Part shown: positions 3,219 through 49,558 of the stretch, one piece after another
Layout: every line of letters begins with the position of its first letter
Numbering within the stretch: the stretch's first letter is position 1
DNA from: Imperialibacter sp.
Lineage (GTDB): Bacteria > Bacteroidota > Bacteroidia > Cytophagales > Cyclobacteriaceae
Reading direction: 5' to 3'
Length of the DNA stretch: 64,000 nt
Assembly: GCF_040222815.1 (NCBI RefSeq)
Contig: NZ_JAVKCH010000036.1
Span: 180,583-244,582 of the forward strand
The notes under the pieces: model-generated
Told to the model about the DNA's origin: nothing
The model's database searches: none
The model's input: the letters and a program-made list of their open reading frames with translations, nothing else
Translations under genes and position numbers: made by a program

Positions 3219-4016
3219 CTAAGGCATCATTTTTAGCTGAGTCAGAATTTGCTTCGTAATCGTCTTTCTGCAACTTCCGAAATTTGGGTTCGGTACCTTC
3301 CTGTCTTTTATCAACCTGGTGGCAAAGAAATAGACATTGTGTTCCTTTTCAATGTACCCAACCCACCAGCCAGTATCTTTTCCGCTGTCACGGGTCCAGC
3401 CAGTTTTGGCTCGCAATATGTAGCCTTCGTTTTGCTCTTCTATCATCATCTCTTTCAGGATGGTAAAAGAGCGTTTGGAGAATGGCAGAGTCTCTTCGTA
3501 CACTCCAATGAGGATTTCTATTTGATTGGCTGGCGAAATGGCAAACGAACCAAAGTTCCAGAAGTCAGGGTCGTTGATGGAAACATCGGCATTGCCATAG
3601 TGGCTGGCTTTTAGAAAGTGCGCATAGCGCTCTTTGCCGATTTCCTTTGCCATTTCCACATAGGCCCATCCGGCAGAAAGCCGAAAGGCTTCTTTCATAG
3701 TCATGTCATGGTAAATGTCAGGCCGGTAGCCATACTTCACCGTGTCGGTGGTTCCCGGCCATTTTATCACTTGATTTTCATCTTTTGCTACACCGGTTTC
3801 CAGCGCTATCAGGGTGTTGATGATTTTGAAAGTGGAGGCTGGCAAAGTAGCTACATGGCTATCGTTGATGTCGCTGGAAATCCATTTTTTGGCGTTGTAA
3901 TCGAAGAGGGTGATGCTGCCTTCGATGTTACACTCTCTAAATGGTTTTGTGAGGGATTCTTGCGCCGGTAGATGATAAAAAAGAAGAACTGCGGCTGCCA
4001 GAAAAGTAATTTTCAT
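3219..4016 (-). CDS. Class D (OXA-like) serine beta-lactamase / penicillin-binding transpeptidase-fold protein
   Basis: Signal peptide; PASTFKI (SxxK), YGN, FW-x-x-G and AKTGW motifs; the SxV position reads SAG. Confidence 0.85.
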   Translation of the reverse strand: MKITFLAAAVLLFYHLPAQESLTKPFRECNIEGSITLFDYNAKKWISSDINDSHVATLPASTFKIINTLIALETGVAKDENQVIKWPGTTDTVKYGYRPDIYHDMTMKEAFRLSAGWAYVEMAKEIGKERYAHFLKASHYGNADVSINDPDFWNFGSFAISPANQIEILIGVYEETLPFSKRSFTILKEMMIEEQNEGYILRAKTGWTRDSGKDTGWWVGYIEKEHNVYFFATRLIKDRKVPNPNFGSCRKTITKQILTQLKMMP

Positions 4017-4076
4017 TGTTAGATTTTTTATCAGAATGACGCTAGTTGTTGCAAATTGGTTGGCATATACTGTGAA

Positions 4077-4673
4077 TTATTGGGGATTTTTTTCGGAGCG
4101 TATTCTGAAGATATTGATGATCACCAACGACGTCATTACCGCCAGGTTGGCTATCAGCAAATATTTCGAAATGGGCATCTCTATTTCCTGTGTAAACCTT
4201 TTGACATAGGTACCAACAAACAAGGCCGTAACAAGCACAAACCCTGAGATGATAATTTGGTAGCGACTTCTTGTTAGCTCTTTTTTGTTCCATAAAAAGA
4301 ACGGCGAGAGGGTCAAAACAACGTAGGCAACTGCACCTGGTAAATTTTTAAACTCACGGAGCTCCATGCCCCTTGTCTCAAAGTTCATAGCGAGGAAGTA
4401 GAAATGGATGAGGTGGTTGAGGGCCAGAAAAAAAAGCAAGCTAACAAACAATTGACGACGCTGCTCTTCTGCATAAATGTGCTTCAGGCCTCTGATGCCC
4501 GTCCAGCAAAGGATACCTGCAAAAAGCAAAAATGAAACCCTGGCAGAATACCGTGCTGCAAGCTGGAAGTAGATGCCTGGCTCGGGTGATACACCGCCCG
4601 ACCACACGTAAATAGCGTACTCGCAAAGAACCACCAGAAGGGAAAGTCCTATCGTTTTCTTCATCATGGGCAT
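4077..4673 (-). CDS. Hypothetical multi-pass membrane protein, possibly ferric-reductase-like transmembrane domain
   Basis: About six hydrophobic segments; AARYSARVSF and LALNHLIHF motifs. Confidence 0.6.
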   Translation of the reverse strand: MPMMKKTIGLSLLVVLCEYAIYVWSGGVSPEPGIYFQLAARYSARVSFLLFAGILCWTGIRGLKHIYAEEQRRQLFVSLLFFLALNHLIHFYFLAMNFETRGMELREFKNLPGAVAYVVLTLSPFFLWNKKELTRSRYQIIISGFVLVTALFVGTYVKRFTQEIEMPISKYLLIANLAVMTSLVIINIFRIRSEKNPQ

Positions 4674-8005: not shown

Positions 8006-8037
8006 ACGAGGTTAGTGGATGCTTTTTTGGAGAATGT

Positions 8038-8065
8038 AACAAAAAAAGCCCACGTTTCCGCAGGC
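8038..8065 (-). terminator. Intrinsic terminator, identical to the copy at 8828-8855
   Basis: Minus strand reads GCCTGCG-GAAA-CGTGGGC-TTTTTTTGTT. Confidence 0.75.
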
Positions 8066-8138
8066 AGTATTGGTATTCAATTTCTTGCGGGGTACTCAAG
8101 TACGCCAATAAGGCTGGGGTCAAGACGATAAAGCGAGG

Positions 8139-8495
8139 TCAGCTGTTGTTGTCGGCTTCCAACTCAAGGCAGGCCATTTCTCTATAGGCATCTTGCAGTA
8201 GAAAATTTTCTATCGCCGAGTAGTTGTTGATTAAAAGCTGGGCTATTTGATTAGTTGAGAGATTGCCTGTTCTAATCCAAATCACTTTTGGTGGATGGCT
8301 GTTAATCACACTAATATCATAAAAATCGGCCTCAAAAGTGACAATGGTGAAGCCATGTTCTTTTGAGTAAGGCCAAATATCTGAATCTTCCATGTCGGTT
8401 AAGCCACAGTGACTTACATGTAGACAGTTGGGGAAATAGTCAACAAGCTTTTTCACCAATCTGAAAGAGATATTCTGGTCGAACAATAGCTTCAT
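8139..8495 (-). CDS. DUF5615 PIN-like toxin (VapC45-like)
   Basis: MKLLFDQNIS, DSDIW, IVTFEADF, PPKVIWIRTGN; 4-nt overlap with the DUF433 gene. Confidence 0.85.
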   Translation of the reverse strand: MKLLFDQNISFRLVKKLVDYFPNCLHVSHCGLTDMEDSDIWPYSKEHGFTIVTFEADFYDISVINSHPPKVIWIRTGNLSTNQIAQLLINNYSAIENFLLQDAYREMACLELEADNNS

Positions 8496-8716
8496 GCATT
8501 GTGCTGAAGCTTATGCTCTCTGTCTGCTGCATAGGCAAGACAGGCCTGAATGTCTTCCAGTGTCAACTCGGGAAAGTCCTCGAGAATTTCGTTGAAACCC
8601 ATTCCGGCAGCTAGCCAGCCAAGCACATCATATACGGTAATCCTTGTATTTCGTACACAAGGCTTACCGAATCTTTTGTTCGGGTTCCTTTGGATGATCT
8701 TTTTATAGTCTACCAT
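8492..8716 (-). CDS. DUF433 antitoxin (VapB45-like)
   Basis: RFGKPCVRNTRITVYDVLGWLAAG...ILEDFPELTLEDIQACLAYA. Confidence 0.9.
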   Translation of the reverse strand: MVDYKKIIQRNPNKRFGKPCVRNTRITVYDVLGWLAAGMGFNEILEDFPELTLEDIQACLAYAADREHKLQHNA

Positions 8717-8732
8717 TTGGACAGGGTTTTAG

Positions 8733-8764
8733 CAAAAATAGCTCTTTTGCCGAAACCATCCGAA
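8733..8764 (-). promoter_or_regulatory. Bacteroidota housekeeping promoter of the toxin-antitoxin operon
   Basis: Minus strand: TTCG, 20-nt spacer, TATTTTTG (TAnnTTTG), ending 17 nt before the DUF433 ATG. Confidence 0.55.
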
Positions 8765-8827
8765 AAGGAGGTGTAAATCATTTATTCCAACGATATGTCG
8801 GAGTTTCCAATGTGATGACGGTTTTTG

Positions 8828-8855
8828 AACAAAAAAAGCCCACGTTTCCGCAGGC
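8828..8855 (-). terminator. Intrinsic terminator of the metallophosphoesterase gene
   Basis: Minus strand reads AGCCTGCG-GAAA-CGTGGGCT-TTTTTT, 28 nt after the stop codon. Confidence 0.8.
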
Positions 8856-8882
8856 TCTTTTCTCGTACTGATATTACCCGTG

Positions 8883-10733
8883 TTATTTTCTGAAAAAGGT
8901 ACCCGAACCGGGGTAGTTGGCAGCACCACGCCAGTCGGGTTGCCACCACAGGTTGGTGCGGTGACTGTAGTCGTTGTCAAAGTCGTTCACGCCTACGTTG
9001 ACCCGGACGGTTTTCCAGTCGCCACCCTGCTGCTCGCCAAGGTAGCTTAGCGGGATGGCCAGCTCAGTGGCATAGCCCTTTTCCGTTTTTCTTGTTACGC
9101 CAATGGTTCCATCGGGCTTGTTGCCACTGGTGAACGGCGTGGTGTTCTCAGCGCCATCCACATAAGGACTCATTCCTATGTACAGCACACCCGAGAGGCT
9201 CGTCCCGAAAGAGCTGATATTTTCACTGCGGCCGTCGATAATTATCTGAAAGGCATCCTGGTTGTAAGGCCTTGAGGAGGCCACTGCCAGCAGTTCATCG
9301 TCTGTTACCTCGGCGCCAATGTAAAGGAACTGGTCGTCGTAGCTGATTCCGAACCGAACCGAGCCGTCAGCCTTGCCACCTTTGTGAGAGAAGGGATTGG
9401 CTTCCGTGTACATTTTGATTTCTGAGTATGGGAGGGCCGCCCAATCGTCAAGTTTGCCATCTATTGTCTTGGTGGTGCCCTTTGAAATGTATTCCTTTTT
9501 GGCCGGACGGGCATTTTGTGTTACATCCATCGTGACGTCCGCCATGCCCTCGCCGTGGAAGGTGACCGTTCCTCTCAATTCTACTGGCTCCAGTGTAGCA
9601 ATCGGGGCAGCTTTTCCACTAAGCTTTAGGGGAATTATTTCTACTGAATTCGGAGCTATGGTGAGACTTTGACGGATAATGCTGGAAGTAAGATCTTTGT
9701 TAGCAGCCAATTCAAAACTAACGTCCATTGGGGCATCACTGTCGTTGGTCAGGCGGATTTCGGTGGTGCCATCCGAAAACGTGCTGCCATCGGTAAACAT
9801 CGGCGATATGCGCACAGGCTGCCCATTAAAAAGTGGCCTGAAGTAGTTACTCGACTGCTCTGTCACCACGCTCTCGTCCCAAACGCCCGAAAGCTCCAGA
9901 TTAGCCATGATGGGCCCGTTGTCGGTCATAGTGATCCACACCACATGATCAAACTCCCCAAACCGTGGGCCTCTCAGTCGGCTGCTGCCTCCTGTGGTAG
10001 CCAGAATAAAGTATTTGCCATTATTTCTTTCGTATTTCACGTAGCTGTGGTGGTGGCCTACATACACGGTATGTTTTCTGGGTGCCAGTAGTTTTTCAAC
10101 GTCAGGCCAGCGAAGGGTTTCGGCCTGTTGGTTCCACAGAGGCTGATGCATGAACACCAGCGTCCATTTCACGTCTGCGTTTGCTGCAAGGGTTTTTTCT
10201 ATCCACTCATACTGCTCGTCGCCGATGGTACCTTTTCCTGCCCCACGGTAGTTGTCCTCCGAATTGAGGCAGAGGAACAGCACGTCTTTGTACACAAAGT
10301 GATAGTAATCCTTTCCAAAAATGGTTTTGTACTTGTCATACATCACCTTGTTGGTGATGTCGTGGTTGCCAGGCACGTAAAAGAAGGGCATCGTGAGAGA
10401 ATCGATAAACCCATTGAATTCCGTCCACTCAGCATCCAGCCGTGCTTCGTCTTCAGTGTAGCCTTCAATAAAGTCTCCCACGCTCATCACAAACTCAGGC
10501 TGTAGCAGATTAAGCTTGCTTAGGCCCACTTCAAACACATTACCCCTATGGCCGCCGGTTCGGTCAGTAACAATGGCAAACTGAAAAGAAGAGGGGTCAT
10601 TGTTCAGATCAAGGCTGGTGTAGGGTGTTGGCCCTTCGATGGGTTCAATCTTAATACTTGCTTTTTCGACTGGAGCGGTGCAAGCCGCACCAAAGACAAG
10701 AAGGCCAACAACAGCGGCTGAAAGATGATTCAT
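8883..10733 (-). CDS. Lipoprotein: calcineurin-like metallophosphoesterase with C-terminal CBM9/DOMON-like sugar-binding domain
   Basis: Lipobox FGAAC; TDRTGG, SVGDFIE, PGNHD, FMHQP, VGHHH; C-terminal TIDGKLDDW...YDDQFLYIGAEVTDD...YATELAIPL. Confidence 0.8.
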   Translation of the reverse strand: MNHLSAAVVGLLVFGAACTAPVEKASIKIEPIEGPTPYTSLDLNNDPSSFQFAIVTDRTGGHRGNVFEVGLSKLNLLQPEFVMSVGDFIEGYTEDEARLDAEWTEFNGFIDSLTMPFFYVPGNHDITNKVMYDKYKTIFGKDYYHFVYKDVLFLCLNSEDNYRGAGKGTIGDEQYEWIEKTLAANADVKWTLVFMHQPLWNQQAETLRWPDVEKLLAPRKHTVYVGHHHSYVKYERNNGKYFILATTGGSSRLRGPRFGEFDHVVWITMTDNGPIMANLELSGVWDESVVTEQSSNYFRPLFNGQPVRISPMFTDGSTFSDGTTEIRLTNDSDAPMDVSFELAANKDLTSSIIRQSLTIAPNSVEIIPLKLSGKAAPIATLEPVELRGTVTFHGEGMADVTMDVTQNARPAKKEYISKGTTKTIDGKLDDWAALPYSEIKMYTEANPFSHKGGKADGSVRFGISYDDQFLYIGAEVTDDELLAVASSRPYNQDAFQIIIDGRSENISSFGTSLSGVLYIGMSPYVDGAENTTPFTSGNKPDGTIGVTRKTEKGYATELAIPLSYLGEQQGGDWKTVRVNVGVNDFDNDYSHRTNLWWQPDWRGAANYPGSGTFFRK

Positions 10734-36371: not shown

Positions 36372-37022
36372 TTATAATTCTATGATATTGTTTTTGATAG
36401 CATACTTCACCAGATCGGCGTTGGAAGAAAAGCCTAGCTTGTCGAAAATAGCTTTTTTATGGTGCTCAATGGTCTTCTTGCTGATGTGTAGATGGTCTTC
36501 AATTTCCTTGAAACTCATGCCATTGGCAAAGCAGCGGAGCACTTCCAGTTCTCTCTCTGTTACAGTGCTTGCATCAGTTTGGAGGTGCAGCTGTGAGATA
36601 TATTGCTGGAAAATGCCCTGTGCGAGCCCCTCCGGAAAGTAGAACTGCCCCTGATCCACCTTTCTAACTGCATCGAGCACCTCCGTTTTCGGGGCGCTTT
36701 TGGGCACAAAGCCTTTTCCGCCAGCTTTCAGGCTCTGTTCAATATAGGCCTGTCCCTCATTTCCTGAGAGAAAGATGATCTTAAGTTTTGGGTATTCCTT
36801 CAACAACTGCCTGCTGAGGTCAATACCCGACTGCTGGGGCAGGCCGATGTCCATCAGTAAGATGTCCGCCTCGTGCTGGCTCAGCAGCTGATGCAGCTCC
36901 CTGGGCGAGGAGGCTGCCGCCAGCACTTCCACGTCGGACTGCATTTTCAGAAAGAGCGACAAACCGTCCCTGAACAGCTCGTGGTCGTCGATCATCAGTA
37001 GTCGAATCTTTCCTGACGTCAT
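36372..37022 (-). CDS. NarL/LuxR family response regulator
   Basis: MIDDHELFRDGL; LLMDIGLP; VTERELEVL...TIEHHKKAIFDKLG HTH. Confidence 0.92.
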   Translation of the reverse strand: MTSGKIRLLMIDDHELFRDGLSLFLKMQSDVEVLAAASSPRELHQLLSQHEADILLMDIGLPQQSGIDLSRQLLKEYPKLKIIFLSGNEGQAYIEQSLKAGGKGFVPKSAPKTEVLDAVRKVDQGQFYFPEGLAQGIFQQYISQLHLQTDASTVTERELEVLRCFANGMSFKEIEDHLHISKKTIEHHKKAIFDKLGFSSNADLVKYAIKNNIIEL

Positions 37023-39013
37023 CAGGCAGCTTTCTTAAGTTGTTTGCCAGTCATGCGGATTGTGAACGTTGTGCCCTTTCCCAATTCACTGGTTAGCGAA
37101 AGTACGCCTCCCAGCTTTTCTATCATTTCTTTCACTAAAACAAGCCCCAGCCCTGTTCCCTTTTCTGTTGAGTTGCCAATCGACTTTTTGTCCGATTCCA
37201 GAGTGAAAAGTTTGTGGAAGTCGTCACTTGCTATCCCGATTCCTGAGTCTTCCACTTCTATGATCACATTATTGTCAATAACATTGGCCCGCAGCCAGAT
37301 GATCCCCTCTGCCGGTGTGAACTTGATAGCGTTAGAAATAAGGTTACGCAAAACGGTTTGCAGGTACTCTTTGTCAGTCTCCAGGTGGATCGGCGCTTCA
37401 ATTTCAATGTAAATGTTTTGTCGCTTCACCTCCAGGTTGAGCTGAAAGAAACTCCTCAATTTTTCAGCCATGTCCCGCAGCTCAAATACTTCCGTTTTTA
37501 AGCTTCTTTCGGAAATTTGGTGCAACGACCATTCGAGCAGGTTTTTCATTTGATCCTCCAACGATTTGGCAGCGGTTTCCAGCTTTGTAAGATACCTTTT
37601 TATGTCATCGGGGCTAATCTGCTCATAGTATTGATTCAGGGTGCTGGTGACGGTGTGAAACGACGACAGCGGGCTTTTCAAGTCGTGGGAAACAATAGCA
37701 AACAGACGGTCTTTGACCTGATTCAGGCTTTGCAACTCCTTATTTTTAGCGTCCAGCATCCCGGCTGTCTTTTGTTTTAGCCGGTAGCGGCTGTAGAGGA
37801 TTGCGGCAGCCAGCATGAGCAGGATAACTATGGCAATGAGGAACAACCTGAACAGTTTCGAGCGCTCTGCTTCAAGATCTTTGATGGTGTGGGCTTGCTC
37901 CAGTTCCAGAATTTTTTGCTCCTTGATCTCTCCCTGGTATTTTTTCTCAAGATCCAGCACCAGATTCTTTCTTTCTAACTCGTCGAAATGCACTTTGGAA
38001 TCCATATACTTCCTCATATGGACGTATGCGGCACCCATGTTTCCTTTCACAGAATCGGCAATAGCCTGCGAAAGATATACGCCTGTAACCGCCCTGTAAT
38101 CGCCATGATTGGGCACAAGCAAAAAAACGGAGTCGAGGTACTGGTAAGCAAGGGCCGCTTTTTTCTGTTGAAGGTAGATCTCTGCTAAATTTTTGCACAC
38201 ATTGATCAACTCAAAACCTCTCTGCAGTTCTTTTTCCAGCCGAAGCGCCCTTAGGGCATAGAATTCAGCCTTTTTGAGGTCAAGCAGTCGCAGGTAGCTT
38301 ATTGACAGATTGTTGTAGCAGGTGGCAAGGTTTCTGTTGTCCGGCAAACTATCAAGGTGCTGCAGGTTTTTTAATTCATACATCAAAGCAGAATCAAGCT
38401 CGTTTCTGTCTCTGTAAATATTACTGATATTAGTAAGAGTTGTGGACAGGCTGGTGAACTGCCTGTATTGTATTTTCGCATCTAGCGATTTTTTGTAGTA
38501 GTAGAGTGCTTCCTCAGTTGACCCAAGGTCAGTAAGCACCAGCCCCAGGTTGTTATAGGTTGACGTAATGCCAGGGTCTTGATGCCTCTCCCGGATTTCC
38601 AGTGCTTTTTTATGAAACTCAAAGGCTTTTTCATACTGGCTCAGGAAATAGTGAGCAACTCCCATGTTGTTGTAGTTTTTTGAAAGGTTCTCGTCGTCCT
38701 GTAGCCTGCTGAATATCTCTGATGACCTGGTAAAGTATTGAATGGCGGTGTCATAATTCGATTTGAAATAGTAGGCATTGCCCATGTAGTTATAGGCCTT
38801 TCCTTTGATGCTGTCGTTGCTGGCGGCAAAATAGGGGGGTAAAAGCATAATTGCCGAGTCGGGCTGGGACCGGAGCATGCTGAATATTTTTTCAAGCGGG
38901 TAAAGGGGTATGTCCTGGTTCGCTTTCGGGCTTTGCGAAAAACTGCTGTGAAACACAAAAAGCAGCAACACACAGGCACCCCGGTTATATCGACTGATAA
39001 AGTTGGTATACAT
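37022..39013 (-). CDS. Sensor histidine kinase with periplasmic TPR repeats
   Basis: TPR motifs YNNMGVAHY and YNNLGLV; one TM; AIVSHDLKSPL H-box; NLISNAIKFT, DSGIGI, GTGLGL; TGATG overlap with the regulator. Confidence 0.92.
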   Translation of the reverse strand: MYTNFISRYNRGACVLLLFVFHSSFSQSPKANQDIPLYPLEKIFSMLRSQPDSAIMLLPPYFAASNDSIKGKAYNYMGNAYYFKSNYDTAIQYFTRSSEIFSRLQDDENLSKNYNNMGVAHYFLSQYEKAFEFHKKALEIRERHQDPGITSTYNNLGLVLTDLGSTEEALYYYKKSLDAKIQYRQFTSLSTTLTNISNIYRDRNELDSALMYELKNLQHLDSLPDNRNLATCYNNLSISYLRLLDLKKAEFYALRALRLEKELQRGFELINVCKNLAEIYLQQKKAALAYQYLDSVFLLVPNHGDYRAVTGVYLSQAIADSVKGNMGAAYVHMRKYMDSKVHFDELERKNLVLDLEKKYQGEIKEQKILELEQAHTIKDLEAERSKLFRLFLIAIVILLMLAAAILYSRYRLKQKTAGMLDAKNKELQSLNQVKDRLFAIVSHDLKSPLSSFHTVTSTLNQYYEQISPDDIKRYLTKLETAAKSLEDQMKNLLEWSLHQISERSLKTEVFELRDMAEKLRSFFQLNLEVKRQNIYIEIEAPIHLETDKEYLQTVLRNLISNAIKFTPAEGIIWLRANVIDNNVIIEVEDSGIGIASDDFHKLFTLESDKKSIGNSTEKGTGLGLVLVKEMIEKLGGVLSLTSELGKGTTFTIRMTGKQLKKAA

Positions 39014-41440: not shown

Positions 41441-42322
41441 TTACGAAAGAAGTGCTCTTGGCTCAGCAATGATGTCTGACAGCACCTCATTGGCCTTCAC
41501 AATGAACTCAGTGCGCTTGGTTACCTGACCGACTGGTAGGGGGAGCACAATGTAGACTGTCATGATGGCTCCGTCAGCCTGTAGCTGCATTTTTGGGGTC
41601 GATTTGTCCTTTACAACCGCCTTTGCCAGTTCATCAATTTTGTCCATTCTGGCCTGGATATCGGCCGGGATGGTTTTGATAGGGAACTTTACCGTATGCA
41701 TTACCCTGTTTTTCCCCATGTTGATAATGGCTTTGCTGAGCAGTGTATTGTTCGGTACTTTAATGAAATCTATGGCTCCGGGATTCTGTAAAGTCACAAA
41801 GAAAGTGCCGATGCGTTCAACAGTGCCGGCCTCATCACCAATTTTTACATAGTCGCCTATTCGAAAAGGGTGCTTGGTGAGAATGATGAACCAGGTAAAG
41901 TAGGAGTTGATAACATCCCGCACCGCAAAGGCCACACCCGTAGTAATAAGGCCCAGAAAGATAGTGATGTTGCCTATTTCAAGCCCCATTCTCCAGAACA
42001 CCACCGCTGCTACGAGAAGGTACAGTGTGGTCGAGTAGATTTTTGTGAAAAGAATGCGTTGTTCGATGTCTACCTCATCGTCATTGAACCGAAAGACCCT
42101 GTTTTCGGTAAACCTCAATATGATAGTTACGGTAATCAGTGCACCCACGGCCCACAACACCACGTCCAACAGCTTGTCGAGGTAGCTTGGAATGGTGATG
42201 TATCGTTCACTATCAGCCCATTTTAGGCCTTCTTCAATGCCTAGAAAAATGAGCAGGAAGAAGATTCGGCGCAGCAGTCGAAAATTCCTTAGTTTCTTAA
42301 AATCCACAAATCGTTTGGCCAT
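41441..42322 (-). CDS. MscS-family mechanosensitive channel
   Basis: LGLITTGVAFAVRDVINS; HPFRIGDYVKIG..GTVERIG; KVPNNTL. Confidence 0.9.
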   Translation of the reverse strand: MAKRFVDFKKLRNFRLLRRIFFLLIFLGIEEGLKWADSERYITIPSYLDKLLDVVLWAVGALITVTIILRFTENRVFRFNDDEVDIEQRILFTKIYSTTLYLLVAAVVFWRMGLEIGNITIFLGLITTGVAFAVRDVINSYFTWFIILTKHPFRIGDYVKIGDEAGTVERIGTFFVTLQNPGAIDFIKVPNNTLLSKAIINMGKNRVMHTVKFPIKTIPADIQARMDKIDELAKAVVKDKSTPKMQLQADGAIMTVYIVLPLPVGQVTKRTEFIVKANEVLSDIIAEPRALLS

Positions 42323-42422: not shown

Positions 42423-43580
42423 TTACTTCACTATCTTCCTGGGAATTGCCGCCGGCAACCTGCTGAGCATTTCGTTGTTGATTAGCTGGGTCACGTTCGT
42501 AAAAGAGCTGATATTGATGGTGTTGTTGTTCTGCCGACCTACGAGCACCACCTCGTCGCCCACTTCTACGCCAGGTATATGGGATACGTCCACCATGAAC
42601 AGGTTCATGTTGATCAGGCCTACTATTGGAGCTTTTTTTCCGTGAATGAGTACGTGCCCCCGGTTCGAGAGCGCCCTGGGGTAGCCGTTGGAATAACCTA
42701 AAGGCATTACTGCTATTTTCATTTTCTGTGTTGCCTGATAGGAAGTGCCATATCCGATAAACTCGCCGGGGTCAACATCCCTCACGTCCATTACATCAGT
42801 TTTCCAATTGAAAATCCTTTTCAGGGCTCCATCGGACGGCTTGCCTGTTTCCTGCAAGTGGGTGTAGTAAATATCCGGACTGGGCCAAAAACCATACTGA
42901 GCCACGCCAATCCTCACCATATCATATACTGTGTCGGGCATGGCCAACGCAGCAGCAGAGCAGGCAATGTGGCGGTATTCGGGCATTGTACCTTTTTGTT
43001 TACACTCCTTGAGGAAATCCTTGTACCGTTTGTGTTGCGAAGTGATTTTGAACTGGTTGGAGAAGCTCTCGGCACCCCCGAAATGCGTGCAGAGGCCAGT
43101 GAATTCAATATGTTGGGTATTCTTTTTCAAAAAACTCAGTGTTTTAGGAAATTCTTTGGCGTTCATACCGGTCCTGTTGGCACCTGTTTCCACTTCAATA
43201 TGCACCCGTGCTTGCTTACCAACTTTCCTGGCTGTTTCCAACACCAGTGGTAGCCTGGCGTAGTTGAAAACAAAAAATTCAATATCGTTTTCAATGGCCC
43301 ATTCAATATCCTGATCGTACAGTATGCCCATGATCATGATACCTCCTTTTTCCGACTTGGCTGCCAATACTTCCTCGGCTTCAAAAGCCGATGCCGTAGC
43401 AAAATGATCTACGCCAGCTTTCTCAGCCATTTTCACAAATTGTGCTATACCATGGCCATAGGCATTGGCTTTCACCACCGAGGAAATCCTCACATCTGGA
43501 CCAATTTTCTTTCTGATGAAATTGATGTTTTTCACCAGAGAAGACTGGCTGAGCTCTATTCTTGACGAGTGCCTTACCAT
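42423..43580 (-). CDS. alr: Alanine racemase family PLP-dependent amino-acid racemase
   Basis: VVKANAYGHG (PLP lysine); GLCTHFG; MVRIGVAQYG; IGYGTSY; PLGYSNGY; 7-nt overlap with the upstream gene. Confidence 0.88.
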   Translation of the reverse strand: MVRHSSRIELSQSSLVKNINFIRKKIGPDVRISSVVKANAYGHGIAQFVKMAEKAGVDHFATASAFEAEEVLAAKSEKGGIMIMGILYDQDIEWAIENDIEFFVFNYARLPLVLETARKVGKQARVHIEVETGANRTGMNAKEFPKTLSFLKKNTQHIEFTGLCTHFGGAESFSNQFKITSQHKRYKDFLKECKQKGTMPEYRHIACSAAALAMPDTVYDMVRIGVAQYGFWPSPDIYYTHLQETGKPSDGALKRIFNWKTDVMDVRDVDPGEFIGYGTSYQATQKMKIAVMPLGYSNGYPRALSNRGHVLIHGKKAPIVGLINMNLFMVDVSHIPGVEVGDEVVLVGRQNNNTINISSFTNVTQLINNEMLSRLPAAIPRKIVK

Positions 43581-45562
43581 AGTTTAGTTTGTTGATTCCA
43601 GACATATGATTTTCCCCAGCTTTCCTTGGCCAGGGGCTCTACTTTCCTGATTTCCTCTTGTGGCACCAGGCTCAACCAGCTTTTTACATCCAGGGCGCTG
43701 TAGTGGAAGGCGTACACCCTGGCAACGAACTGATAAAACGGCAGCGATGATTCCCCGGGCTTCTCACCATTTCCAAACACTGTGGGTTTAATTCCCTGGC
43801 CCCAATCCTGCCGCCCCTCATTGTTGGGGTTGAGAAAGTAGGCCCTCATTTCTCCTTTTTTGTTTTTGTCTACACGGAGTAGAGAGATGGCATGAAGCCC
43901 CACCATCACTCCTTTGTTGGTAGTGAGAAAAATGCCTACTGGGTTGGGGTACACCATTTGGTGCTGACCGTTGAAGTCGGGGTGGAAAGCAGCGTAAAAG
44001 ATTTTGACAAAACCTGCATAGTCAACGATCGAATTGCTCGGGTAGTCATAACACGAAGCAAAGCCCACGTGCACCCACTGCCCATACATGGCCGGGTTTA
44101 CCCATTTGTGCGGATCTTCACCACGAAATGACGAACGCCTCATCATCTCATTGTAGATTTTATCCAAATGAGGCACAAGCACTACCGACACCACATCAAG
44201 GTTGTGGTCCAGGTTGTCAAGCAGCCCTTTCCCCAGCTGGTTAGAGGTCAGGTCCTGGTTTTCAAAGCGCATGATGAGGTCATTTTGGGTCGCCACAGTA
44301 ATGATCATATCGATGAGCATTGCCGGGGCATGCTGGCTCCACATGCTAATGCCCCTGGCCGATTGGCAGGTGGGGTTGTTGCCCTGCCCCACGCCAAGGT
44401 GCTGCCCCAGCACTTTAATGGTGCCGCCTATCAGGTACTGTAGCACAGTTACATCAGCGTCTTTGTTGATCAGCGACTTGCTGATCCGCTTCTCCACCAT
44501 GCTGTGGATTTTGACTTTGCGGAGGTTTTCGAGTCCCACCCTAACAGGCCGCCTGGAAAACAAGCTTTTCCCCAGCATTCGGGCTAAGCCATAAATGCAC
44601 TGGCAATTGTCGGGGCTGACTGTTTCGTTGATCAGGGTGGAAATCAACCCATGAAATTTCTCCCACTCGGCCACTCCACGGTCGTTGAGGTGGAGGCAAA
44701 CAGGAACCAGGTCTTCATAGTCAGCAACGAGCTTTTTGAGTAGCAGAGAGTGGTAGCCACTCACCAGGCCAGTGGCGTTCATATGGTCGCCCATGGCTCT
44801 GGCCTCCCTTTCCAAAGTGGCCACGCTGCTTTCCGAAAGGAAATGCTCGTAATCCTTGAGGCTGGCATTGTTTCTTGCTCCTTCAGAAGGAGCATAGATA
44901 GCGTTGATGTACAGCCGAACCGACCGATCCGTTTCGGAGTCTCCTGTGGTATCGAAACGCTCGTTAACCAATCGGATGAGCTCTCTGGCTTTGCGGGTCA
45001 TGATGGGCCGTTGAGCGCAGATGAGTCGGATTTCCTCGGCGAGCTTTTCATACACGCCCTGCAGGTCGATTTCTGAGACGATGAAGCCGAAGAGATTGAA
45101 CGCCTTTTTCAACTCTCTCACAGGCATGGCCAAACGGGTTTCTTCTGAAACATCCTGATGGGCAAACTCAAGATTGTGCACCATCACCTCTTCCAAAAAG
45201 CTTTGAGCGTCTTTCTGCGCTATCTTATCGCTTTTTTCAATGCCGGTTGCAAAAGCTAACAGCCGCAGCTCAGAGAGAATCTCAAAGCTGGAGGTAGGGT
45301 GGCCGACTTTCAGGGTGCCCTTCACCAGCAGAGGAATGAGCTTGTCGGGCTCGCTCCATACTGTGTTGTTGAAAATGCCCGCACGGTCGAGCTCACCGAT
45401 TTTTTGAAGCAGGTAGACCAGCCCATTCCTGGATTGACTGAGTATATCTACCTGACTCGCCAGCTTGGCAGCTTTCTCCTGCTTGGTTAACTCAATTGAC
45501 TCTTTAAACTCTTCTAAACTCTTTTCAAAATTTTGAAATATCCTGTCGGATGCTATTTCCAT
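43574..45562 (-). CDS. Uncharacterised 662-aa protein with a C-terminal papain-like catalytic motif set
   Basis: GQGNNPTCQS, VGLHAISLLRV, YFLNPNN; no signal peptide. Confidence 0.75.
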   Translation of the reverse strand: MEIASDRIFQNFEKSLEEFKESIELTKQEKAAKLASQVDILSQSRNGLVYLLQKIGELDRAGIFNNTVWSEPDKLIPLLVKGTLKVGHPTSSFEILSELRLLAFATGIEKSDKIAQKDAQSFLEEVMVHNLEFAHQDVSEETRLAMPVRELKKAFNLFGFIVSEIDLQGVYEKLAEEIRLICAQRPIMTRKARELIRLVNERFDTTGDSETDRSVRLYINAIYAPSEGARNNASLKDYEHFLSESSVATLEREARAMGDHMNATGLVSGYHSLLLKKLVADYEDLVPVCLHLNDRGVAEWEKFHGLISTLINETVSPDNCQCIYGLARMLGKSLFSRRPVRVGLENLRKVKIHSMVEKRISKSLINKDADVTVLQYLIGGTIKVLGQHLGVGQGNNPTCQSARGISMWSQHAPAMLIDMIITVATQNDLIMRFENQDLTSNQLGKGLLDNLDHNLDVVSVVLVPHLDKIYNEMMRRSSFRGEDPHKWVNPAMYGQWVHVGFASCYDYPSNSIVDYAGFVKIFYAAFHPDFNGQHQMVYPNPVGIFLTTNKGVMVGLHAISLLRVDKNKKGEMRAYFLNPNNEGRQDWGQGIKPTVFGNGEKPGESSLPFYQFVARVYAFHYSALDVKSWLSLVPQEEIRKVEPLAKESWGKSYVWNQQTKLW

Positions 45563-45581: not shown

Positions 45582-46805
45582 TTATACATAAAAATCGACT
45601 TTCTGATAATGCTTTAAAAGCTCTGTCATACGGTCGGGGTCTTCTCCCTTGAAGTTGATAGTGCCAAAGTGATTGCCAAATCCTCCACGGTCGCCACTGA
45701 TTTTCTGACCTTCGTAGGGCGGAACCAGGCTGTGCTCAATGAAGTAAGGGTCGTTGTTGAGCTCTTCGGGTATTTCAAGTTTCGAAAACTGACGCTTGTG
45801 AGGATAGATCATCACGTTGCCATGGTAATACTTCGGTTTGAAGCCCTTTGGAGGGAATATTGCATCCAGCTCTTCGTCGGTTGCATTCGGATCGTGCGAG
45901 ACCACAAAAGCTGCCAGAGCGTCGAACTCGTACGACTTGGAGCAAAGCTCAAGAATGTGTCCGCCGGGAATTCTACAGGCAGTTTCTCCAAAATTCAGCT
46001 CATCGTTTTCGGTAAGGAACCATTCGGGATGTACCATACCAAACTCAATACCGAAAATATCGACCATTTTCTGCACCTGTTTGTGGATCAACTCACGCTT
46101 GGTTTCCAAAAAGTTGCCTTCAGGAATAAAATTAGAATACCCGAGTTTCACATACTCGGTGATATTGAGGAACCTGATTTTGCCTTTATGGATAAATGCT
46201 TCACAGGAAAACTCCCTGCCTGGCAAGTGACTCTCAGCAAGACATGGGAAATCGCCATCTTCGCATTCTTCGTCTATTTGAGCCATTGACTTCAACAGGC
46301 GATGGCCAACAGTACCGGCCGAGGCAAAGGGCTTGATATGTACCCAGCTATCCGATTCGCCTTCCAGTTGCAGATTGGCTTCGTTCAGTCGCTTCATAAA
46401 GGCCTTCACACCGTCTTTGCTATACACCTCTTCAAACAGACCAACCCTCAGTCCTCCAATAAGGGCTTTGCGCTTCATGATGGCCTTGTTTCGAAAAAGA
46501 AAAGCCCGGTTAAGTACCCTGGGGTCATTTCTGTAAATTGAATTCAGTGCTCCGGCCCATTCTACTGTTTCCTCGTAAAGCGGAACAGCCACGTCAGCGT
46601 TATATGGTTTTAGCTTTTCAACAAGGTCAAGCGAATTGGAAGTGTCACTCCACTCATCTAGCTGGTAGGGAACAAATGGTATGTTATGTTCGGCTGCATA
46701 TGGTTCGAAATCCGGAAATGACACCACTACATAGGGTTTTCCTAATTTTTGCATACTTTCTATTACAGGCAGACTCCAGCCCATCAGTGCGAAACATTTT
46801 GCCAT
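45582..46805 (-). CDS. ATP-grasp carboxylate-amine ligase (L-amino-acid-ligase-like)
   Basis: FRNKAIMK; HIKPFASAGTVG; ESHLPGREFSCE; HPEWF...FGETACRIPGG. Confidence 0.88.
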   Translation of the reverse strand: MAKCFALMGWSLPVIESMQKLGKPYVVVSFPDFEPYAAEHNIPFVPYQLDEWSDTSNSLDLVEKLKPYNADVAVPLYEETVEWAGALNSIYRNDPRVLNRAFLFRNKAIMKRKALIGGLRVGLFEEVYSKDGVKAFMKRLNEANLQLEGESDSWVHIKPFASAGTVGHRLLKSMAQIDEECEDGDFPCLAESHLPGREFSCEAFIHKGKIRFLNITEYVKLGYSNFIPEGNFLETKRELIHKQVQKMVDIFGIEFGMVHPEWFLTENDELNFGETACRIPGGHILELCSKSYEFDALAAFVVSHDPNATDEELDAIFPPKGFKPKYYHGNVMIYPHKRQFSKLEIPEELNNDPYFIEHSLVPPYEGQKISGDRGGFGNHFGTINFKGEDPDRMTELLKHYQKVDFYV

Positions 46806-47556: not shown

Positions 47557-47766
47557 AGTTGTAAAGATTTAAGGGTTTAAAAAAACATCCAGGGCAATCT
47601 TACGGTTTTTAGCCAGGCAAAATGGGCAAAGTAGACGGAGTTGCCGACGATGTCGGTGGACAACCACTTTTCGGGGGGATTCTACATTTTTGGTAAAATA
47701 CCTGCCGAAAATGGCATTTCGTCGACTTTCACGGTAAGATTTAGAATTTATCGGCATTTTGCAGCA

Positions 47767-48867
47767 ATGATAAGCGATTATCTCAACAAGTTGGTCTATT
47801 CAAAAGGTGGTAGAGTGCTGGCCCACGTGGTCTTCTGGTGGCTCTCTCTTGCTTTCCTGATGGTTTATTTTGCCAGGATAAGTAGCGATTATGGCTTCTC
47901 TCTGCGTTTTGCGTGCCTCATGTTGCCGGTGGCGATGGGCACCACTTACTTCATTAATTACAACCTTGTACCTAAGTACCTCCTTACGAGAAGCTACGGC
48001 AAGTTCATGTTGTATTTTTTGTACACACTTATTGTGTCGATGTATTTCCAGATGTGGGTAATTGCGCTCACCTATATCTCCATCGCTGAGTACAACTATG
48101 AGAAACTAGGGCCGGTAGCCGGGGATTTCATTTTTCAGCCGGTAGGTCTTTATTCTATCGTACTGTTGGGTGTCGCTCTTAAGTTGCTGCGACTTTGGAT
48201 GAAAGCTGAGCGAGAAAGGGCCGAATTGAAAAGTGCCAGCCTCGAAGCAGCGCTGAAGCTGAAGGAAGCAGAACTGCAGTTGCTCAAGGGTCAAATACAC
48301 CCTCACTTTTTATTTAACACCCTCAATAACCTCTACGGTTTGGCATTGGAGAAGTCGGATGTTCTCCCTGTTAGCATCCTGCGCCTTTCCGAACTGCTCG
48401 ACTTTCTTCTGTACAGAAGCAATAAGCCATTGGTGCCACTGGCCGACGAGATTAAGTTAATGAAGGATTACATAGCACTGGAAGAACTTAGGTTTGAAGA
48501 AAGACTTCGGCTTGAGTTGGATATTCAGGCCAACGGGAATGACTGTAGTATCGCACCTTTTCTCCTTTTTCCATTTGTGGAGAACGCCTTCAAGCATGGC
48601 TTTATGCAGGACGACCAGCAGCTTTTTCTATCCATTTCAATCCATACAAAAGGTGAGCGACTTTACCTCACAGTGGCCAATTCATTCTCAAAAAACGAGA
48701 AGGAAGCGGGGCAGCTTGGCGGGGTGGGGCTGTCAAATGTGAGGAAACGTTTGGAGTTGCTTTATCCGGGCAGCCACGAGCTCACAATTGAGAACAATGA
48801 GCAGCACTTTATTGTAAACCTGGAACTTGACTTAAAGACAAAAGATGATGTCGGAAGCGACTCGTAA
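47767..48867 (+). CDS. LytS/YehU-type sensor histidine kinase
   Basis: TM region, then ELQLLKGQIHPHFLFNTLNNLY; PFVENAFKHG; GVGLSNVRKRL. Confidence 0.92.
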   Translation: MISDYLNKLVYSKGGRVLAHVVFWWLSLAFLMVYFARISSDYGFSLRFACLMLPVAMGTTYFINYNLVPKYLLTRSYGKFMLYFLYTLIVSMYFQMWVIALTYISIAEYNYEKLGPVAGDFIFQPVGLYSIVLLGVALKLLRLWMKAERERAELKSASLEAALKLKEAELQLLKGQIHPHFLFNTLNNLYGLALEKSDVLPVSILRLSELLDFLLYRSNKPLVPLADEIKLMKDYIALEELRFEERLRLELDIQANGNDCSIAPFLLFPFVENAFKHGFMQDDQQLFLSISIHTKGERLYLTVANSFSKNEKEAGQLGGVGLSNVRKRLELLYPGSHELTIENNEQHFIVNLELDLKTKDDVGSDS

Positions 48868-49558
48868 ATGCATGATTGTTGATGATGAGCCGATTGCCAT
48901 TCGGGTGATCAGGGGCTATCTGCTGCAAATTGGTGGCTTCGAAATAGTGGCTGAGTGCCGCTCGGCCACGGAGGCATTTCAGCTTTTGCGCAGCCATTCC
49001 ATCGACCTTATTTTTCTCGATATTCAAATGCCTAAGCTCACAGGTCTCGACTTCCTGAAGGCACTTCAGCACCGACCAAAGGTGATTTTGGTCACGGCCT
49101 ACCGGGAATATGCCATTGAGGGTTTTGACCTGGATGTGGTGGATTACCTGCTCAAGCCAGTTTCTCTGGAGCGGTTCATGAAGGCGGTAGATAAATTTTA
49201 TCAATTGTCGGAGGGCAATGCAAAAGTGCAGGCAGCGACCACGCAAACACCAGCGTCAATATTCGTAAAATCAGATAGAAAAACCGTAAAAATAGTGCTG
49301 GAGGACATTCTTTACATAGAAAGCTACAGCGACTATATCAAGATTTTCACCGCTGACGAGACGATCATTACAAAAGAGAGGATTAGCCATATCGAGCATA
49401 GCCTACCTGCCGTTTTTGTCAGAACACATCGGTCATTTGTGATCAACAGTGCACAGATAAAGTCATTTACCAACGAGCACGTCAACGTTGCAGGCAAAGA
49501 GGTGCCCATCAGCCGGAGCTACAAGGAAGAAGTGCTGTTAAGGTTCCAAAGCCTTTAG
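48845..49558 (+). CDS. LytTR family response regulator
   Basis: IVDDEPIA; IFLDIQMP; DYLLKP; ILYIES...DYIKI; FVRTHRSFVIN. Confidence 0.93.
   Translation: MMSEATRKCMIVDDEPIAIRVIRGYLLQIGGFEIVAECRSATEAFQLLRSHSIDLIFLDIQMPKLTGLDFLKALQHRPKVILVTAYREYAIEGFDLDVVDYLLKPVSLERFMKAVDKFYQLSEGNAKVQAATTQTPASIFVKSDRKTVKIVLEDILYIESYSDYIKIFTADETIITKERISHIEHSLPAVFVRTHRSFVINSAQIKSFTNEHVNVAGKEVPISRSYKEEVLLRFQSL

Follow-up and report, generated by a model that had tools for sequence, protein, structure and literature searches.

What does a 662-residue protein without any recognisable domain do beside an ATP-grasp ligase? The question is raised by a gene, here called X like its product, in a stretch of 64,000 nucleotides from Imperialibacter sp. 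(contig NZ_JAVKCH010000036.1, positions 180,583 to 244,582; hereafter the window). An earlier reading of this DNA, referred to below as the original prediction, had proposed a papain-like catalytic set of Gln, Cys, His and Asn in this undescribed protein, and had taken it for a likely peptidase, amidase or transpeptidase of the cysteine type, located in the cytoplasm. We found that set to be supported by conservation, by the predicted fold and by its register with calpain-family (C2) proteases, and X to be one half of a two-gene module.

A papain-like residue set in protein X

Positions 43574-45562 hold a single open reading frame (ORF) of 662 residues. The original prediction had named no strand for it; the ORF is real and is read on the minus strand, the plus strand of the same interval being rich in stops. 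The residues were found where they had been placed: the motif GQGNNPTC puts Q393 six residues ahead of C399, H557 lies within GLHAISLLRV, and N578, within YFLNPNN, follows 21 residues past H557. The first 380 or so residues, described as all-helical, form only helices up to residue 386 in a full-length AlphaFold2 model (46-sequence alignment; predicted local distance difference test, pLDDT, 89.3; predicted template-modelling score, pTM, 0.84). A cytoplasmic location is reasonable, since no signal peptide and no hydrophobic or membrane segment was detected in X. The features of X are as follows.

43574..45562, minus strand: X gene, encoding a two-domain protein of 662 residues; no Pfam or NCBIfam model
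44405..45562, minus strand: N-terminal all-alpha domain, residues 1-386, predicted (AlphaFold2 with DSSP, high pLDDT)
43577..44404, minus strand: predicted C-terminal calpain/papain-like (clan CA-type) catalytic domain, residues 387-662 (domain model and Foldseek)
44384..44386, minus strand: codon of Gln393, putative oxyanion-hole residue; codon checked; 46/46 relatives; matched in alignment by the Q of the bacterial C2 motif QGAVANC
44366..44368, minus strand: codon of Cys399, putative nucleophile; codon checked; 46/46 relatives; aligns with the C2 catalytic Cys
43892..43894, minus strand: codon of His557, putative general base; codon checked; 45/46 relatives; matched in alignment by the H of the C2 motif HAY
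43829..43831, minus strand: codon of Asn578, putative third member of the triad; codon checked; 45/46 relatives; matched in alignment by the N of the C2 motif RNP

Conservation was assessed on an alignment of 46 full-length relatives of X, at 25-57% identity. Only 18 of the 662 columns are invariant, Q393 and C399 among them, and C399 is the sole invariant residue of the six cysteines of X. H557 and N578 are each kept in 45 relatives; the lone deviant at both positions, P0177, also lacks Q400, R403, D483 and H485. The set thus passed strongly the conservation check that had been proposed for it. A Q/C/H/N pattern might arise by chance in one sequence; its conservation, as judged from the alignment, cannot. 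D456, R563, R573, E600 and E604 are further invariant charged residues, which would suit a zwitterionic small substrate. The C-terminal domain (372-625) is better conserved than the N-terminal half (0.63-0.70 versus 0.42-0.47).

The family to which X belongs is sizeable and isolated. A homologue search returned 1,043 relatives, every named one of them "hypothetical" and none with a Pfam domain. An exhaustive profile search over 1.84 billion cluster representatives gave 253 clusters at 50% identity, all self-contained, and no bridge from them to any named family. About 590 of 185,579 species genomes carry relatives of X (589 relatives were found), in at least six phyla, and the family tree follows these phyla with some transfers. 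No paralogue of X was found in the Imperialibacter genome. Two homologues in metagenome-assembled genomes carry stops, one in-frame TAA in locus L011 (G320:C2:40039-42000) and two stops in locus L057 (3420-5405), and are possibly pseudogenes or assembly errors.

The predicted structure is consistent with the assignment of the residues. In both the full-length model and a model of residues 372-662 alone (pLDDT 85.6, pTM 0.86), helix 399-411 begins with C399. The AlphaFold2 model of full-length X puts H557 within strand 553-566 and N578 immediately after strand 572-577. X is therefore predicted to combine three features of clan CA, namely a Cys that opens a helix, a His on a strand with the Asn next, and a Gln six residues before the Cys. 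Judged by secondary structure and fold matches, Q393, C399, H557 and N578 appear to hold the positions that define the papain-clan active site.

Foldseek, another of the checks proposed with the original prediction, led to calpain cores and then almost only to clan CA. Searches with full-length X were dominated by insignificant HEAT/ARM-like matches, the only kind obtained with the N-terminal domain. The C-terminal domain matched calpain-3 first (probability 0.96, E 1.9e-3, about 300 aligned columns), followed by calpains 2, 9 and 1, the calpain cores spanning probabilities of 0.75-0.96. These were followed by staphopains, Pd_dinase/BDI_2249, bleomycin hydrolase, PepW, falcipain, cathepsin B and ananain; nearly all of the top 50 matches were clan CA peptidases. 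A viral structure library gave weak matches only, with papain-family proteins among the top few.

Sequence searches bore out the earlier statement that no family could be recognised. X had zero matches at any threshold in Pfam (searched whole and as both halves), NCBIfam, PADLOC and the PDB, by phmmer or profile, and no Pfam family was matched by the 46 relatives at E up to 10. At that threshold the calpain model PF00648 was unmatched in X and the 46 relatives, and PF00112 (papain, C1), PF05257 (CHAP), PF05023 (phytochelatin synthase), PF14399 (BtrH_N) and PF01841 (transglutaminase core) were unmatched in X, its halves and the 46 relatives; there was likewise no C39 Pfam similarity in X. A hidden Markov model (HMM) comparison of X with 116 bacterial C2 proteases scored 19.5 against 20.5-20.6 for reversed-sequence nulls, which is not significant; a comparison with two such proteases likewise fell short of significance.

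The best structural match across the domain of about 290 residues is thus the calpain core (MEROPS C2, PF00648; human calpain-3, 6bjd). Both have Gln, Cys, His and Asn in the same order and at similar spacing, the Cys-to-His distance being 158 residues in X and 169 in a bacterial C2 protease, and the His-to-Asn distance 21 and 20. A greedy HMM-HMM alignment, whose score is not significant, lines up Q393, C399, H557 and N578 with the motifs QGAVANC, HAY and RNP. In contrast to calpain, X has a helical N-terminal domain of 385 residues, lacks calmodulin-like and C2L domains and is paired with a ligase; it shows no significant sequence similarity to calpain, and the template-modelling (TM) score is only 0.31-0.42. 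On the predicted fold, X represents, in our reading, a papain-clan (clan CA) family not described before, structurally nearest the calpain core and outside family C2. Such a family, invisible to sequence methods, deserves a name and a domain-database model.

Partnership with an ATP-grasp ligase

The gene ahead of X encodes a predicted ligase.

45582..46805, minus strand: ATP-grasp carboxylate-amine ligase, 407 residues, first gene of the operon; Pfam ATP-grasp_4 match below cut-off

X starts 19 nucleotides past the ligase stop. The nearest solved relative of the ligase, and the only meaningful one, is the L-amino acid ligase 4wd3 (E 1.7e-7). To follow the two genes, 80 loci were taken from the scan of 185,579 species genomes, and their co-occurrence was determined in 401 genomes of the phylum, roughly 100 of them from the class of Imperialibacter. 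The ligase lies immediately upstream of X in 76 of the 80 loci; some of the other four are cut contigs, and two (L088 and L092) are orphan copies of X. Of the 401 genomes, 6 have X and the very same 6 have the ligase, the two genes being adjacent every time; no ligase was found without X. The pairwise identities of the two proteins are also correlated (r 0.74-0.89). Because of this adjacency, shared occurrence and correlation, the core of the system is a two-gene module of ligase and X. More than a thousand proteins annotated as "hypothetical", none with a domain model, would thereby gain a predicted calpain-like Cys active site and an obligatory ATP-grasp partner.

The orphan copies were found in Bacillaceae (L088:6001-7938 and L092:6001-7926), with no adjacent ATP-grasp gene; downstream of them lie an SMP-30/gluconolactonase-like gene and the gene of a class B penicillin-binding protein. 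They form a long branch of their own in the tree, and the copy in L092 comes from a genome that has the paired form as well (L087). A 1066-residue ORF in a Planctomycetota metagenome-assembled genome (L069:4753-7953) was considered as a ligase-X fusion and rejected: the last 111 ligase residues are in another frame, which indicates a frameshift. Automatic methods could misread this ORF as a Rosetta-stone fusion.

What X does for the ligase is the next question. Our preferred answer, held tentatively, is that X is a clan CA thiol enzyme that processes the ligase product through an acyl-thioester on Cys399, as the obligate second enzyme of the module. This role is favoured because the ligase was never seen without X, whereas L088 and L092 hold paralogues of X that have no ligase beside them. 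Neither the papain-clan fold class nor the pairing of a ligase with a papain-like enzyme is new in itself. What no library or paper searched describes is the X family, with its architecture, its strict tie to the ligase and its set of accessory genes.

A comparable known enzyme is phytochelatin synthase (MEROPS C83), which has a papain fold with Cys-His-Asp and a Gln six residues before the Cys, and which transpeptidates a small peptide made by ATP-grasp ligases. It differs from X in size and architecture; X has no PF05023 match and no thiol-peptide context.

The evidence of conservation, fold and pairing that supports a processing role supports equally a synthetase/amidase pair, in which X would hydrolyse the very amide made by the ATP-grasp enzyme. 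We regard this as doubtful taken by itself, yet nearly as likely as the processing role. The size of the peptide pool would then be switchable, for instance by fast removal after an osmotic down-shock, which we hold to be just as doubtful. The closest structural relatives of X, the calpains and other peptidases, are hydrolases by default. In glutathionylspermidine synthetase/amidase (GspSA) and trypanothione synthetase-amidase, a carboxylate-amine ligase works together with an amidase of the papain clan, which uses Cys and His and whose substrate is a small amide metabolite (PMC6272389, PMC2784880); in GspSA the CHAP-family amidase, with Cys59, is joined to the synthetase, and its reversible thiol inactivation by cysteine oxidation lets the product accumulate (PMC6272389). 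However, the GspSA activities are fused in one chain with a small N-terminal CHAP amidase and act on glutathione and spermidine, whereas X is a separate and far larger protein without CHAP similarity. A degradative partner should also be lost more easily, and no ligase without X was found in the 401 genomes or in intact loci. Furthermore, 662 residues with a large extra domain exceed the needs of a simple amidase.

Accessory genes and habitat

The third gene of the operon encodes a predicted racemase.

42423..43580, minus strand: alanine-racemase-family enzyme dependent on pyridoxal phosphate (PLP), 385 residues; TIGR00492, 293 bits

The first 7 nucleotides of this gene overlap the end of X, and no riboswitch or leader RNA was found upstream of the operon with Rfam. 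No defence-system match was obtained in PADLOC for X, the ligase or the racemase. The racemase keeps the PLP-Lys and catalytic-Tyr motifs and has an insertion of 12 residues. It is one of three Alr homologues in the Imperialibacter genome. The second, an open frame of 845 residues whose Alr match falls in the C-terminal part, reads as a MurF-Alr fusion. With two other Alr homologues present, one of them a presumed MurF-Alr, the racemase of the operon is therefore a dedicated paralogue. The third homologue, at contig C48:280771-281901 (L006:1498-2649, minus strand), is a 383-residue ORF within a 421-residue open frame; it has the 12-residue insertion of the operon's racemase and a GYS-type tyrosine motif, unlike the housekeeping MurF-Alr. 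These two proteins may form a small subfamily of atypical racemases.

A racemase gene lies downstream of X in 46 loci, all in Bacteroidota, Balneolota, Rhodothermota or Ignavibacteriota, and is absent beside X in the Bacillota and Gemmatimonadota loci. In L018 and L065 it is followed on the same strand by the ornithine-supply genes ArgB-ArgD-ArgC-ArgJ; L067 has the arg genes through ArgC after the racemase, L014 the set without ArgB, and L025, L031, L035 and L049 have arg genes rearranged nearby. Imperialibacter carries an unlinked ArgD-ArgC-ArgJ operon (contig C40:1492-4953, L093) that is 59-64% identical to the linked sets. Among the approximately 100 sampled genomes of its class, ArgJ occurs only in the two that are positive for X, which suggests that ArgJ arrived or is kept together with the module. 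As a phylum-wide marker of X, ArgJ was rejected, being present in 182 of the 401 genomes; the co-occurrence is seen only within the class of Imperialibacter.

Elsewhere other genes accompany the pair. In 8 Bacillota loci the ligase gene has a GNAT acetyltransferase gene overlapping or abutting it, and in Saprospiraceae loci it is preceded by genes for a GNAT, a sodium:solute symporter and a second PLP enzyme. In one Gemmatimonadota locus (L055) a glutaminyl cyclase (3714-4664) lies immediately upstream of the ligase and a pyridine-nucleotide-disulphide (flavin) oxidoreductase (8035-9180) immediately downstream of X. Taken together, these genes point to a small-molecule pathway in the cytoplasm that is fed by ornithine or N-acetylornithine; in Bacteroidota a racemised amino acid would be a further input.

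The arginine/ornithine context, with a Cys-His hydrolase strictly paired with an ATP-grasp enzyme, also bears on a helper of the glutaminase type, in which X would free ammonia from glutamine or another amide donor through Cys399 for use by the ligase. Parallels are the small and large subunits of carbamoyl-phosphate synthetase and AsnO in N-acetylglutaminylglutamine-amide synthesis, and the combination of GNAT, ATP-grasp and amide-forming enzyme follows the logic of that known dipeptide osmolyte pathway. Foldseek, however, found only peptidases for X, and we know of no amidotransferase with a papain-like fold; such a helper is highly improbable.

The same neighbourhoods make it improbable, though less so, that the system acts on proteins, the ATP-grasp enzyme adding amino acids to a protein in the style of RimK or tubulin-tyrosine ligase and X trimming the tag or processing the target. 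Calpains are enzymes of limited proteolysis on proteins, the weak HEAT/ARM-like matches of the helical domain describe a shape often used for protein binding, and pairs of ATP-grasp enzymes with papain/transglutaminase-like peptidases have reportedly been predicted to be protein-modification systems. The accessory genes encode enzymes of amino-acid supply or modification and a solute symporter, but no conserved target protein, and in the loci surveyed neither a small ORF nor a third protein is conserved beside the pair. The nearest solved relative of the ligase, moreover, acts on free amino acids and is not RimK.

Carrier proteins were also looked for. No such gene recurs in the 80 loci, two of which hold a small ORF with a GxDS motif, a chance-level number, and no phosphopantetheinyl transferase (PPTase) or peptidyl carrier protein (PCP) gene recurs near the module. 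This leaves very little room for a thiotemplated assembly, in which the ATP-grasp enzyme would load a carrier protein and X would transacylate between carrier-bound thioesters. The precedent is clear: the ATP-grasp enzyme CtaD and the papain-like transacylase CtaG (Cys-His-Asp triad) build the peptide backbone of closthioamide, and CtaD/CtaG, like BtrJ/BtrH of butirosin, combine ATP-grasp activation with acyl transfer through a papain-like Cys-thioester and no hydrolysis (PMC7183216). These systems nevertheless depend on carrier proteins, of which there is none beside X, and X has no BtrH_N or C39 sequence kinship.

Judged from their names, the hosts of the module are mostly halophiles or come from saline or soda-lake samples, among them Halobacillus, Gracilibacillus, Pontibacillus, Fodinibius and soda-lake Gemmatimonadota. 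An osmoadaptive product is plausible. Genes named asnO and ngg are said to be tied to N-acetylglutaminylglutamine amide, which is made by an ATP-grasp ligase with GNAT activity and finished by an enzyme with a Cys nucleophile. Ngg and AsnO belong to different protein families throughout, and the X module is tied to ornithine and a racemase, not to glutamine. N-acetylglutaminylglutamine amide is an osmotically relevant dipeptide solute (PMC1224877), and acetylated diamino acids together with one dipeptide amide are known osmoadaptive precedents (PMC4685198, PMC1224877). Literature searches returned nothing on this gene pair or on an ornithine dipeptide osmolyte.

The proposed reaction and its product

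The conservation, the predicted fold with its active-site topology, the strict pairing of the two genes and the sets of accessory genes are results; which substrates the module uses, which way the reaction runs (transfer or hydrolysis) and what osmotic part it plays are inferred, as follows. The ligase would join two amino-acid-type substrates using ATP, one of them probably from the ornithine/N-acetylornithine pool. In Bacteroidota the other would be supplied or modified by the dedicated racemase, and hence could be D-alanine. Cys399 would then attack an amide of the ligase product to give an acyl-thioester, His557 activating Cys399, Asn578 orienting His557 and Gln393 forming the oxyanion hole. 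An amine would resolve the thioester, either from the same molecule (cyclisation) or from another (transpeptidation or trimming), and the final compound would plausibly be an osmoadaptive solute.

Several observations weigh against this processing role for X. No sequence method links X significantly to any clan CA family, and the Foldseek fold match is modest (best E 1.9e-3, none at or below 1e-3; TM 0.31-0.42; root-mean-square deviation about 9 Å). Two other near-invariant histidines, H485 and H620, are candidates for the base. The link to ornithine is one of gene neighbourhood in about 15 of the 80 loci, and in Cyclobacterium the neighbouring arg genes look like an ordinary arginine operon. 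The two X-positive genomes with ArgJ are related and not independent, and halophily was read from organism names only. Finally, most of the data would fit a hydrolase strictly paired with the ligase just as well.

The family and its partner point to a compact two- or three-gene pathway for a peptide metabolite, tied to ornithine metabolism, a dedicated racemase and saline habitats. A more specific reading, which we consider unlikely, is that the module makes a compatible solute derived from ornithine and D-alanine, with X as a bond-forming transpeptidase or cyclase of calpain fold. X would in that case turn the linear ligase peptide into a charge-masked or cyclic final compound, which would constitute a new class of osmolyte. 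Were the product a compatible solute, it would be a new osmolyte with its genes, and were X to form bonds, the known chemistry of the calpain fold would be wider.

A further gene on the same strand may also be part of the unit.

41441..42322, minus strand: MscS-type mechanosensitive channel, 100 nucleotides downstream of the racemase; PF00924

Possibly this channel belongs to the operon. Its orthologue is conserved only in the near-identical locus L013, and L003, L021, L034 and L042 have unrelated MscS-like genes close to the module. Two-component systems flank the region on both sides: a TPR histidine kinase with a LuxR-type regulator at 36372-39013 (minus strand), and a LytS-like kinase with a LytTR regulator at 47641-49558 (plus strand).

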